A stretch of DNA of 60,569 nt, the filler included, from Dugesia japonica (taxonomy: Eukaryota), in the NCBI GenBank assembly GCA_001938525.1. It is 5 parts of 5 records of this genome, joined end to end, with 100 filler letters (N's around TTAATTAATTAA, not from the genome) between each part and the next. Parts side by side here need not be neighbours in the genome. Positions count along the whole stretch, not along the records: positions 10,888 to 22,209 come from MQRL01462472.1; 4 more parts are not named here. One strand, written 5' to 3'. Position numbers and translations under genes: made by a program. This document shows positions 16,855 through 20,860 of the stretch, piece after piece (within the stretch, counting starts at the first letter, position 1; every line of letters starts with the position of its first letter). Under the pieces are notes generated by a model. It was not told where the DNA came from, did not search any database, and saw only the letters and a program-made list of their open reading frames with translations.

Positions 16855-17224
16855 CTAAATATAATAATAATAATAATAATGATAATAATAATAATTGTTA
16901 GATGAAACTGTAACATTGATGTTTGCATTAAAAAGGGAACACTTTTCATACTAAGATTTATTCAAGACAAAACTAAAACCCAAACTATCAATTTGTTTTT
17001 TAAACAAATTTTTAAAACTAGCTAACCTTTTTATTTAATTCTGACCGAAGTTATTTGAAAATATTCAAAAAAACAATAAATTTAAAAAATTAATCATTTT
17101 ACAAAATTTAATATTTAACAAAAATGTTGGGTTTTTAGGATTTTTGATGTGAAAGATTTAAATCATTTCGCTTTCATTTTTAACAATTCATCATATCCAG
17201 GGGCATACCTAAAAACCCCAAGCG

Positions 17225-17720
17225 TTTATGGTGTCCCATGTCCACTTTCTTCTGGATCCAGTGCGACTTTGTGGTATCGCGTCTTAACACTGAGGGTATA
17301 CTAAGTGGACCGTTGTGCTCAGTAATACTTTCAATAGCTAAACGATTGGTCATACAAAACCGTTGTCAAACTCTACCAAAATCATGACAATATCAAAATC
17401 TATTTATTTTATTTACATGCCATAAAATCCAAATCCACGGACATACCGCTCTACTCAGCTACTGATGGTGCGGGTCTATAATTCATTCATAATGTACGAA
17501 GCGTAGCAAACATGGAGAATTAACGATCGGCGTAAATCTTTATTACGTCCGCCATGAGTCGATTCGCCTGTTGCAGCGATAACTCTTTCTCCTTTAGTTG
17601 AGCAATCTTGGATGCTGATTTTGTTGCTTATCCCTTCCATCGTAGGATTTCACTCCGCAGTTCTCTACGCTCCTTAGCATATCTTTTCTGTGCTTGTATC
17701 GGTTTCTTCTTATAAGTTAG
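17225..17720 (-). pseudogene. Decayed coding cargo of element copy 2 (helical protein; homologue at 50760-51270)
   Basis: ELRSEILRWKG*ATKSASKIAQLKEKELSLQQANRLMADVIKIYA and VKTRYHKVALDPEE. Confidence 0.45.
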
Positions 17721-17975
17721 CTTGTCACTAGATTTGTTCACTAAAATAATTTTATAATGATGAAAACATGGAAAAGTAATTATGGCATATTATCAGTAAT
17801 GTTATTATCATTATTTAATTATAAAAATATGAATTTTCCACTTCGTCACTTTTTGGTATAACAGAAACAAAACTTTCATTTCATTAAAAAAACTATTGTC
17901 GTAATTAAATTATTCGCCGCATCTGCAGCTCGTTATCATAAAAACAAACTACATCGTGACATACATATCACGTAA

Positions 17976-18420
17976 TCAAACAAACAAAGTCGACACTTGC
18001 ATAACACCAATACATTTTATTTCCGACTGAGATTCAATTTTAATGATCATTGGCTCCTGTTTCTCGGCCACTACCCCAGTATCATCCACCAGTTGCCTGA
18101 CAATCCCTTCCTCGATTTGCTTGATCAAGAATAGGTGATCAATCATATGCTGTGTCGCCATTGAGAGCTCTAAGGTCACTGTTTGTAAATCCAACCTCCT
18201 CTGCGCCAACTGTTTTTCCAGCTTCAACTTGTCGTCACTGACTGCTTTCAATTGCCACCACACCTCAAGGTGGCGTTTCATTAACTCTTGATTATCCTCA
18301 CTTGCTCTCAACTCACTGTTCTCATCACCTGTTTATCCTTTTCATAAGCCGCTTTCTGATCGTCCAATAGCTCAATTGTATTCCTTTATGGGATCCAGAA
18401 GGTTCCTTCTTCGCCGTCAT
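17976..18420 (-). pseudogene. Coiled-coil-like ORF of element copy 2
   Basis: 111-aa ORF (…LKAVSDDKLKLEKQLAQRRLDLQTVTLELS…) in the same position relative to the shared terminal block as the 8190-8525 ORF in copy 1. Confidence 0.45.
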
Positions 18421-19349
18421 TTTTAGAGCACGAGTGATATAGGCGGTTTGAAATATGCTGTCACTTCTATTAATACGTAGTAACATAGTTTTCCAACATC
18501 AACAATAAATATAAATTAAATAATCAGTTTCCTTTTCTTCGGCCTGTGGCCTATCATTTCTGATTCCTCCACTTTTGTAGCACTGATCGAAGATGTTCAC
18601 TAACGCAGCCATTTTTTCTGGTCCACGCTAGTGCGAAGCTCTGTTAAGAGTTTCCTTAACAAAAAATCTTAAAAGAATTTAGTTATAAAAGTCAAGTTTA
18701 ATCTCCCTAGCATTTGCAGTAAACGAATGTTGCTTTAGTTCAACACTTAACCGATTTTATATTATGATAAGCTATGTTATAATAAATTTCGAAATGAAGG
18801 GAAATATGATAAAAACATTCAACTATTTATATGATCAAAGATAATACTTTAAACAAAATGGTCGTTTCGAATTAAGGAAGCTTACTGTAATAAAGTGAAC
18901 TGTTATAATTGTGAAAACGTTATCTTAATATTTAATTAGCTTCATATTCTTAACAACGGTTGCCAATAAAAACATTATGATAACAAAAATTAAATATTTA
19001 AATTGCGACCAAATGATATTTTCTAAGTAAAACACTCGACAACAACAACTACAGATGACCCTACAAAACAGCTTATTTATGGCAATCAAGCCCCACCCAG
19101 TTCTCTGCATTATCCTATCCCTTCTCGTCCGGCTACCCTCTCCAGGCGTAGGATATTCTATTGTTGCTATTTTCTCCGTCTACTTTCTATATTCTCACGT
19201 AATTTCGATTAACTGATCTGCTTTGCATCTTTCTCTATGAAATCTGCACATACTTCTAGCTGATCTTGTAAGCCATTTTCAATTTATATTTTATCAGCAT
19301 CAAATTTTTTTTCATGATCTACATAATTGTGAACGAAATTTCTTTTCAT

Positions 19350-19700
19350 AACATTTGCAAATTCGAGAACAATATTTGATTTACATTTCCGATGAAAGCA
19401 CTTCATAATCATTGCTTATTTAGGAACCGCATTCAATTAATATTATCTGATGGAGGCACTTTTCATAATTGTTGCTAATTTACGAACCACATTCAACCTA
19501 AATAATTTGATGGAAGCACTTTTCACAATACTTGCTCGTTTACAAACCACATTCAATTTACATTATTTGATGGAAACACTTCCAATAATAATTGCTAATT
19601 TACGAACCACAGCCAAGCTAATTCATCTGATGGAAGCATTTTCGATAATAGCTACACGTTTACAGATCACATTCAATTTACATTATTTGATGGAAGCACG
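19350..19700. repeat. 60-bp tandem repeat, about 5-6 diverged units
   Basis: Unit TGATGGAAGCACTTTTCATAATxxTTGCTxxTTTACGAACCACATTCAATTTACATTATT recurs at exact 60-nt spacing. Confidence 0.9.
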
Positions 19701-20076
19701 ATCTCAACATGGTACTCGGTATATAAGAATTTTAAAATTTTTAGTATTTATCAAAGAAAATATCAATTTACTTTTGTTCTCTAAGTTGGTAATTCGTCCT
19801 TAACAATAATAAAATGTTGCTACTATAAAATTGCACATATGCTAAGCAAATTAGATTTTTACAAAAATGTTTTAAAATTATCTGCTTTTCTCTTCGAGTA
19901 GTTTAGTTTTATTGCTACTGGCGTTTAGGAAAAATGAGCTGCTGGTTAGCCAGCCAATCCTACTTGAATTCTTTAGAATCCGCTCTCTGATTGGAGTAGT
20001 TGGTGTGCAATTCTCTCTCTTCACAATTTTTACTGGTTTAGTGCACACTGACTTTTTGCACTGAGTTTTATCATTT

Positions 20077-20214
20077 CAGTCATCTCATGTGACCTCTGAC
20101 TAAGCATGCAGTTACTGTGGGAAGTCCTTGTCTGAATTAGGGTGAGTAAGTTGTTTTCGTTGTTTATTTTGTATTTTTTATCGCCTGATTCAGAAAAGGC
20201 ATGATGACTGGACC
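20077..20214 (+). ncRNA. Conserved multi-stem RNA structure near the element end (copy 2)
   Basis: CAGTCATC/GATGACTG closing stem. Inner stem CCTTGTCTGAATTAGGGTGA / TCGCCTGATTCAGAAAAGG. Confidence 0.55.
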
Positions 20215-20860
20215 AAAATTAATTACCGAAATAATACTATTAAATAGAAAATTCTATTATTATAATAAATAAAACCGGTCGTAGAGACCCTTCTAATATA
20301 ATATTATATTAAATTATATTATTTTTATTGTTTAATTTTTTATTTCCTTTTCATGTATATAATTTTAATTTTTATATTAAGAATTTGTGGTCATCTACGC
20401 CCGATTTTTATTTTCCAACATTTTCATATACATTCGTATTTATTATAATAACAATAATTATATGATAATAATACTAATAATAACTCATTTTCCTTCACGT
20501 TTGTTCTTTATTTTCACATACGTTTTTTAATTATTACTCTGTTATAGGGGTGTTCTAGCCCAAACAAAAATATTTTCAATTAAATTTCGAAAATTATTTA
20601 TTTTACAAAATTCTTTAATTAAAAAATATTTTCAATTAAATTTTTGAACTTTATTACATGAAGTTAATTTAATTATTTATCCAACTATTTTCATTAACAA
20701 CTTCGGTCGAACTATAAAAAATTTAACNNNNNNNNNNNNNNNNNNNNNNNNNNNNNNNNNNNNNNNNNNNNNNNNNNNNNNNNNNNNNNNNNNNNNNNNN
20801 NNNNNNNNNNNNNNNNNNNNNNNNNNNNNNNNNNNNNNNNNNNNNNNNNNNNNNNCTTAC

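Follow-up and report, generated by a model that had tools for sequence, protein, structure and literature searches.

We have analysed a stretch of 60,569 nucleotides from Dugesia japonica (assembly GCA_001938525.1; five parts of five records joined by filler, called here the window), which is AT-rich (19-34% GC per 2 kb) and contains two units, copy 1 and copy 2, that have a common skeleton but differ in their cargo. Copy 1 carries structural genes of retroelement type, neither copy has a pol gene or terminal direct repeats, and both have an integrase-type site at the left end and flanking duplications. All credible open reading frames (ORFs) of both copies lie on one strand. A spacer at 10788-10887 (N44-TTAATTAATTAA-N44), presumably a join between scaffolds, separates them. 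The units, their common blocks and the ends of copy 2 are as follows (positions along the window; no strand is given where none applies).

2148-9294 (7147 bases), minus (strand of the ORFs): copy 1, whole unit, decayed through stops and frameshifts
17125-20562 (3438 bases; alternative right end up to 20566), minus (strand of the ORFs): copy 2, whole unit
20079-20535 versus 8767-9244: block 1, non-coding, AT-rich, 68-71% identical
18535-18626 versus 8640-8732: block 2, a GGCC-N3-GGCC dyad plus about 70 bases, homologous
17954-17971 versus 8085-8102: block 5, 17/18 identical, not named in the original prediction
17243-17281, minus: left inner block of copy 2, a 26-base conserved stretch, a short palindrome and, 120 bases from the left end, nine purines in a row with TGGA after them
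17125-17150, plus: left terminus of copy 2, fits TGTTRNR (complement YNYAACA on the minus strand)
20551-20562: right terminus of copy 2, TGTTCxAGCCCA; bases 4-9 of the copy 1 left end, reverse-complemented, equal its last six bases
17117-17124: left 8-bp flanking duplication of copy 2, AACAAAAA (chance of at least 8 bp in these flanks, 0.002)
20563-20570: right 8-bp duplication of copy 2, alternatively terminus plus a 4-7 bp duplication

A common skeleton around different interiors

The original prediction, made by reading the sequence, held that the two units have the same termini and three conserved inner motifs. Each motif occurs exactly once per copy: TGTTGGG at 2148 in copy 1 and 17125 in copy 2, TTTTGATGT at 2163 and 17142, CTTCGGCCTxTGGCCTA at 8642 and 18537, CTCATGTGACCTCTG at 8772 and 20084, TCTACGCCCGATTTTT at 9083 and 20394, and TGTTCxAGCCCA at 9283 and 20551. 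The three inner motifs are all there, but two of them lie within one continuous homology, block 1, and hence are not independent, and two further collinear blocks exist. In all, five common blocks are collinear and in the same orientation, at both ends and inside the units.

Block 1 dominates the right end: 332/486 alignment columns are identical (E 2e-59), the whole right end of about 490 bases is 70.7% identical over aligned pairs, and the right terminal 100 bases or so score at z 5.2. An aligned AATAAA lies on the plus strand within the block (20264 in copy 2, 8956 in copy 1). The two GC-rich islands of this block (GGTCGTA... and TCTACGCCC) are imperfect inverted copies of each other, spaced by about 100 bases in each unit (20277-20402 and 8968-9091), and in copy 2 only, two opposed CCAAT-like motifs are found just inside the block (19950-20005). 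For block 2, 500 dinucleotide shuffles gave p 0.002; on the minus strand it precedes ORF B in copy 2 and ORF1 in copy 1. Block 5 is separated from block 2 by 588 bases in copy 2 and 562 in copy 1, and it is this collinear position that makes it credible, not the match alone, for which the expected count without positional restriction is 0.09. At the left, 18/26 bases of the conserved stretch (17256 in copy 2, 2297 in copy 1) are identical to 2297-2322, about 130-175 bases inside the left end (p 0.008), the terminal 50 bases resemble each other at p 0.022 (dinucleotide shuffles), and the left 200 bases or so at z 3.1, with a score equalled in 1/300 shuffles.

Profiles of the right, block-2 and left regions revealed no third copy in the window (best other match, E 0.012), and a 26-base gapped pattern of the shared DNA had 0 matches in GTDB genomes, a weak negative for a prokaryotic set. 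A third TGTTGGG lies at 54571, with direct repeats around it at 54128-56102 (67% over about 700 bases and 95% over 530 bases across an N gap), in a context unlike that of copies 1 and 2. When copy 2 was scanned in sliding 200-base windows, 7/17 beat the best of 12 shuffles, and five of these seven are the known blocks. Of the other two, that at 17725 is ascribed to AT composition, since its score of 66 falls among the 55-81 obtained on unrelated slices; that at 18925 beat its shuffles by one point only, is not collinear, and was judged without such a slice control. Duplicated promoter cassettes inside copy 2 were unsupported (p 0.65-0.8). Folds of the two sequences as RNA gave z from -1.0 to -4.2 in 10 region-strand tests against column shuffles, too little data to be used. 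The pentamer GTGAC recurs in three of the common blocks (2304, 8087, 8777, 17956 and 20089), often as half of a dyad, with GCGAC in the left block of copy 2 (17263); it could be a repeated protein-binding site. A short palindrome adjoins the purine run in both copies (17252-17261 and 2293-2300), with different central bases; it spans 10 bases in copy 2 and a certain 6 in copy 1, where it stands beside an N.

Outside the blocks, blastn and tblastx of copy 1 against copy 2 showed nothing beyond low-complexity noise, and 0/27 pairwise protein comparisons involving the three ORFs of copy 2 reached p<0.16. This difference from the common blocks bears out the proposal of conserved cis-acting ends with different cargo. 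Blocks 1 and 2 are about 1.45 kb apart in copy 2 versus about 35 bases in copy 1; conversely, block 5 and the inner left block are about 5.8 kb apart in copy 1 versus about 0.7 kb in copy 2. Each copy therefore holds sequence that the other lacks, and neither is a simple deletion of the other: the 1.45 kb of copy 2 between blocks 1 and 2 are absent from copy 1, and the negative protein comparisons agree with this for these two copies. Both could still stem from a longer common master.

Cargo, ends and flanks of the two units

The genes and other features carried by copy 1, its left host flank, and the cargo of copy 2 are the following.

8200-8454, minus: ORF1 of copy 1, a short coiled-coil-like remnant between blocks 2 and 5
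6054-7725, minus: ORF2 and ORF3 of copy 1, two decayed ORFs upstream of the glycoprotein, to which neither a family nor a fold could be assigned
4361-5977, minus: remnant of a chuvirus/gB-type glycoprotein (G) in copy 1, PF24664 positions 4-100, 116-181 and 246-428 of 653, in three pieces, broken
3220-3489, minus: first retropepsin-like domain of copy 1, full length, decayed (no match in Pfam; E 6.7e-4 against a profile made of 14 fetched proteins)
2922-3080, minus: three CCHC knuckles of copy 1, CX2CX4HX4C, with a candidate fourth upstream lacking its first Cys
2703-2786, minus: N-terminal half of a second retropepsin-like domain of copy 1 (RVP E 0.005), followed by nothing resembling a reverse transcriptase (RT)
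1602-2147, plus: left host flank of copy 1, occupied by a decayed rve integrase gene, which breaks off exactly at 2147
17979-18332, minus: ORF B of copy 2, open over 118 codons with a Met at 18281, a single long coiled-coil-like helix
19083-19421, minus: ORF A remnant of copy 2, doubtful, rich in purines and helical through its composition, with 113 codons interrupted by 7 stops
17499-17741, minus: ORF C remnant of copy 2, a purine-rich island, 2 stops in 97 codons (17499-17789), doubtful
19342-19699: tandem array of a 60-bp unit in copy 2, 6.0 copies with 71% matches, absent from copy 1

Read on the minus strand from its right end, copy 1 thus presents ORF1, ORF2/ORF3, G, a stretch with no assigned identity, a retropepsin, knuckles and half a retropepsin. 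G belongs to the Monjiviricetes fusion family (PF24664, E 8.6e-28), is present in copy 1 only, and has a hydrophobic stretch, noted by eye, at 4555-4361. No close relative of it was found in the protein sets searched (0/3359 and 0/2974 candidates, 0/137 stretches). The region after G gave 48 matches at E<=0.001 and none at 1e-10, all centred on the knuckles or the knuckle-protease stretch. From 3489 to 2703 the order is protease, three (perhaps four) CCHC knuckles, protease; two aspartic protease domains are also reported for Wendovirus (PMC10377300). The fold model of ORF2 was uninformative (predicted local distance difference test, pLDDT, 50; best Z 5.4; no Foldseek match at E<=0.001), and ORF3 matched no family in a Pfam scan, the only search applied to it. 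An integrase C-terminal remnant suspected by eye at 2459-2686 had no Pfam match, and a match to Cauli_DNA-bind (E 0.033) was treated as chance.

In copy 2, the three minus-strand ORF islands have purine contents of 0.61-0.68 versus 0.42-0.53 in the spacers, resembling the coding strand of copy 1. Small helical ORFs had been proposed there; the proposal is well supported for ORF B and doubtful for the other two. A codon model trained on copy 1 places ORF B beyond the 99th percentile of shuffles, and its predicted structure is a single long helix with pLDDT >90 over 58 residues. It lies between blocks 2 and 5, the location of ORF1 in copy 1, and a relationship to ORF1 was not retained, as the likeness is not significant (global p 0.119); in family searches only generic coiled-coil clusters matched (recognition 1506, under the guide value of 2300). 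The codon scores of ORF A and ORF C do not exceed those of shuffles, a match of ORF A to a myosin coiled coil (E 0.015) was ascribed to composition, and a 'KIAQ' likeness between ORF1 and ORF C is not significant (p 0.18). Compared with Pfam, the ORFs of copy 2 gave a best match of only E 0.019 and none was assigned to a family. A ciliate-type code as the cause of the stops was ruled out, because TGA, TAA and TAG all occur in frame. The predicted 60-bp array was recovered. A plus-strand frame across it is open (19441-19800), and its candidacy as a gene was rejected: the open frame has 13 synonymous and 28 non-synonymous single changes, no better than closed frames, its codon score is below the 99th percentile of shuffles, and as a protein it resembled nothing recognisable (score 0.82, recognition 892). 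By these measures the array is probably non-coding. Copy 2 thus has one credible coiled-coil ORF, two doubtful ones, and an array with no coding support.

Neither copy contains an RT, RNase H or integrase: 11/12 frames had no Pfam match and the twelfth matched only G. Within the two units, the matches of six gag/pol proteins were confined to the knuckle-protease stretch; the one other spot, a weak one (E 0.042), lay far outside. No RT class was seen in the window, no gypsy-like DDE transposase inside either unit, and no transfer RNA (tRNA) gene in the window. Terminal direct repeats are absent from both copies by self-blastn, the longest non-array repeat being 27 bases, in copy 1, and not terminal. 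A hammerhead in block 2, as in a retrozyme, was looked for and was not among 16 Rfam matches at E<=1 over 1900-21000, a search that a decayed one could escape. Since RT and integrase are missing from both copies, dependence on a helper is a fair inference.

The ends are of the TG...CA type in both copies. In 2/2 copies the left end fits the integrase recognition pattern TGTTRNR, and the right end, in the longer end reading, has one difference from YNYAACA; these are the 5' and 3' short inverted repeat patterns of long terminal repeats (LTRs) (PMC3601003). The inverted match between the termini is 6 to 9 bases. If the units are taken to end at AGCCCA, the perfect duplication reaches its greatest length in each, namely 5 bp for copy 1 (chance 0.013) and 8 bp for copy 2 (chance 0.002). 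The original prediction had bounded copy 2 at 17125 and 20566: the left bound stands, and the right end moves to 20562 if the longest perfect duplication is followed, 20566 being the 4-bp reading. With later ends in copy 2, duplications of 7, 6, 5 or 4 bp are equally possible; with the end at AGCCCA, a 5-bp rule is satisfied at 5/5 positions in copy 1 and 4/5 in copy 2. The lengths first proposed (5 bp in copy 1, 4 or 8 bp in copy 2) can thus be read, but no single rule of end and length, of the kind seen in env-carrying Ty3/gypsy elements with their fixed 4-6 bp duplication, is perfect for both copies.

The flanks of copy 2 are made of one degenerate AT-rich repeat on both sides, which indicates contiguous host DNA and a clean insertion. 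Copy 1 cuts an rve integrase gene, which we take to be of Polinton type: aligned to a homologue with 91% identity over the query, the gene can be followed as far as base 2147. The last 150 residues or so of this integrase were not found to the right of copy 1, so that at least 450 bases of its 3' part are missing at the right junction. Because this right flank does not continue the gene of the left flank, the 5-bp duplication of copy 1 is weakened, and the attempt to fix the duplication length by means of the interrupted gene failed. For the flanking integrase, 50 homologues were found, several with a chromodomain. To the right of copy 1, 9300-9752 contains 50-bp repeats and a CTACTATCTATCTACT-type end; with the integrase on the left, we take the surroundings of copy 1 for a decayed Polinton-type element.

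A possible helper-dependent family and the competing readings

We propose, tentatively and with a probability of roughly 45%, that copies 1 and 2 are non-autonomous relatives within one integrase-type retroelement family, subject to cassette turnover and copied by an unseen helper. The two copies retain one ordered cis skeleton, composed of the right-end block that would be the leader, block 2, block 5, the inner left block and the left att end, and the cassettes of genes that separate these blocks have been lost, gained or replaced. The minus strand would be the genomic RNA, block 1 would act as its leader, that is, as promoter and packaging signal, and RT and integrase would be supplied in trans by a longer or sister element outside the window. 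Copy 1 may then represent the env-gag-protease part of an element with an env-gag-pol order, and copy 2 a passenger with small accessory genes. The minus strand of both copies starts with TGG, and a 9-base purine run followed by TGGA lies 136 bases (copy 1) and 120 bases (copy 2) before the left end, with 3/9 bases identical; by inference only, this run is comparable to a polypurine tract (PPT). Each unit would be built like a provirus from which the 5' LTR is missing, with a TGG start, cargo, purine run, a terminal segment of 120-136 bases and an att site, and the molecule might have been inserted by one proper end and one makeshift end. Indeed, the unequal duplications (5 and 8 bp) and the deletion in the right-end flank resemble one-ended integrations (PMC5041404), in which the host joins the poor end with duplications or deletions; the duplications described there are mostly far longer than 8 bp. 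The ENV-GAG-POL order is reported for two mites, Medioppia and Oppia (PMC13524379), and the main product of the insect LTR element HMS-Beagle consists of 1-LTR circles (bioRxiv 2022.09.25.509424). By analogy, precedents thus exist for single steps of the proposed scheme, and none for the whole.

Several points weigh against this proposal. The copies number only two and the helper is not seen. As neither copy has a terminal direct repeat, a normal RT cycle cannot regenerate the units, and both copies would need to be in the same unusual state. No tRNA was matched to the TGG start, the window itself holding no tRNA gene, and no capsid domain was identified in copy 1, which has CCHC knuckles but whose decayed ORFs gave no capsid match. 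Purine runs followed by TG are common on the minus strand (6 in copy 1, 3 in copy 2), the purine-run feature was chosen post hoc, and the run of copy 1 borders an N. AATAAA lies near the left end in copy 1 only. Finally, the right end within one difference of YNYAACA is more simply explained if the units are solo LTRs.

This last reading, which we consider unlikely although it is the strongest of the alternatives, reads both units along the plus strand, as solo LTRs of giant size (3.4 and 7.1 kb) that consist of a TG end, a variable U3 with antisense genes and the array, a conserved promoter-R-U5 segment in the last 500 bases or so, and a CA end. The parent element would hold pol between two such LTRs, and no helper in trans would be needed. 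Att sites at both ends with no inner direct repeat are the expected look of a solo LTR, the left end fits TGTTRNR, and the right end comes within one difference of its counterpart in both copies. R/U5 is said to be better conserved than U3 (PMC3601003), and the plus-strand AATAAA aligned in block 1 of both copies is followed by T-rich sequence, but AATAAA is frequent at this composition (5 and 6 plus-strand matches). The 5-bp duplication obtained with the AGCCCA end agrees with this reading too, even if the flanks of copy 1 are not contiguous. It demands, on the other hand, that env, two proteases and knuckles lie antisense inside an LTR, of which the literature search returned no case by title or abstract, and it leaves the inner-left purine run unexplained.

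The idea that the units are parts of a divided genome can be put in two forms. In the broader one, which we hold to be improbable, they would come from an animal enveloped reverse-transcribing element, integrated with integrase-type ends but no LTR pair, whose genome is split into structural, accessory and unseen RT/integrase modules with shared ends. For insertion, a molecule with a single LTR would be opened at the point where LTR and leader join and where the two ends make up a short dyad. Its structural module would comprise the gB-type G, two proteases and knuckles, and its accessory module the small coiled-coil genes and the array. The stricter form, slightly less probable again, follows the original prediction of true segments: the element would be multipartite, enveloped and reverse-transcribing, with copy 1 as its structural and copy 2 as its accessory segment, a third, unseen segment would supply RT and integrase, and all would have common ends and be packaged jointly. 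Common ends, complementary-looking cargo and a cassette layout, with sequence in each copy that the other lacks, speak for such segments, and plants offer a precedent in the endogenous florendoviruses that are bipartite and whose components complement each other (PMC10377300). Yet the two copies lend no support to segmentation: each cargo class is represented by a single copy, no RT/integrase class is seen, the shared blocks are only about 70% identical, which would fit related subfamilies equally well, both copies could stem from a longer master, and two of the three copy 2 ORFs are doubtful. A giant solo LTR gives the same anatomy with no trans helper, and multipartite genomes are, according to PMC10377300, otherwise not known among Ortervirales.

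Still less probable are non-autonomous Ginger-like DNA transposons, with an integrase-type transposase and captured retroelement or viral genes, which would involve no RNA step. The ends of Ginger elements conform to TGTNR, and non-autonomous copies that share these ends are reported (PMC2836005); moreover, a transposase would be well served by binding sites in long, asymmetric, conserved ends that carry dyad motifs. Against this, Ginger terminal inverted repeats (TIRs) measure 40-270 bp versus 6 to 9 bases here, and Ginger1 targets CCGG/CCGT versus AT-rich sequence here (PMC2836005); the genes carried are not host fragments but form, on one strand, a coherent set of structural genes of retroelement type. 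The last reading, in which the shared pieces would be a small repeat in its own right, or would match by chance next to sequence that is unrelated, was already disfavoured and can practically be set aside: the left-end likeness alone is modest (p 0.02-0.008; z 3.1), as is block 5 with its unrestricted expected count, but five separate collinear blocks in one order and orientation span both ends, the duplications arise at the same right-end base in both copies, the left end coincides with the break in the integrase gene, and no other copy of any block is found in the window.

Relation to known elements and other features of the window

When the two units are compared with known systems, copy 1 resembles gB-type env Ty3/gypsy elements (PMC13524379), with which it shares a chuvirus/gB-type glycoprotein together with CCHC and retropepsin genes and a TG-type end; as in the ENV-GAG-POL elements of Medioppia and Oppia (PMC13524379), env precedes the knuckle-protease region. 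In contrast with the gB-type elements, pol and an LTR pair are absent here, two protease domains and extra upstream ORFs are present, and copy 2 has no structural genes. The BEL/Pao element Anakin carries the same class of captured chuvirus glycoprotein inside a retroelement and has many defective copies, but it is organized as GAG-PR-RT-RH-INT with two LTRs of 100-900 bp, and its defective copies, as reported in PMC7642597, do not form a class with both ends conserved and the cargo replaced. With neither pol nor an LTR pair, the units fail as members of the gB-type errantiviruses and of Anakin. Solo LTRs (PMC3601003) share with them a TGTTRNR start, a near-YNYAACA end and a conservation peak in the last few hundred bases, but the units here measure 3.4 and 7.1 kb with several genes inside. 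Florendoviruses and Wendovirus (PMC10377300) are like them in the complementary components of a reverse-transcribing virus and, for Wendovirus, in two aspartic protease domains; unlike them, they are plant viruses with a movement protein, no envelope and no integrase, inserted by repair with no att ends. Ginger1 and Ginger2 (PMC2836005) share the TGTNR ends, the lack of LTRs and non-autonomous copies with common ends, whereas here the TIR is far shorter, no transposase is present, and the cargo is structural and of retroelement type; the units fail as Ginger members too. Troyka was rejected as a relative, its CG...CG ends and 3-bp duplication (PMC12440569) differing from what is seen here.

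A functional parallel may be found among passengers. Terminal-repeat retrotransposons in miniature (TRIM), large retrotransposon derivatives (LARD) and retrozymes have no pol, depend on a helper, keep conserved cis signals, and have two LTRs, which in TRIM and LARD flank a primer-binding site and a PPT. The units here are like them in the first three respects, but they have genes and no LTR pair, so that membership of TRIM or LARD fails. By analogy, they may work like a helper-dependent LTR-type passenger.

We regard copies 1 and 2 as a real and unusual element family, a variant of a known retroelement type, in which segmentation is possible. Searches by title or abstract in the literature covered, with subscription journals and Repbase outside their scope, returned no published description of such an anatomy. 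Each of the three leading readings departs from a textbook LTR element, whether as gene-carrying passengers with no paired LTRs, as multi-kb LTRs with antisense env and protease, or as a segmented enveloped animal retroelement. If the units were scattered deletion products of an ordinary env-gag-pol element, the finding would be modest. Units of this kind would be missed by LTR-pair finders and by gag-pol-env screens; the authors of PMC13524379, who ran such a screen, state that other ORF arrangements were not searched.

Other features were seen in the window. Close to copy 2, 20879-21000 forms a long fold-back that matches several microRNA models below gathering scores and is probably an inverted duplication or a small transposable element. 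A gag-like ORF noted by eye at 53617-54156 had no Pfam match, and a minus-strand open frame at 51644-52125, also with no Pfam match, encodes an acidic protein with a hydrophobic signal-like start and is possibly a host gene. A 297-base duplication, 99% identical, spans an N gap at 39354-39997 and is likely an assembly artefact. Remnants of a hAT transposase occupy 56853-58704 (PF05699, E 5.9e-5 for 56853-57269; the upstream piece was recognized by eye), and a degenerate satellite of 28-30 bp lies at 29100-30750 and 36300-37100, in two assembly pieces and in both orientations.

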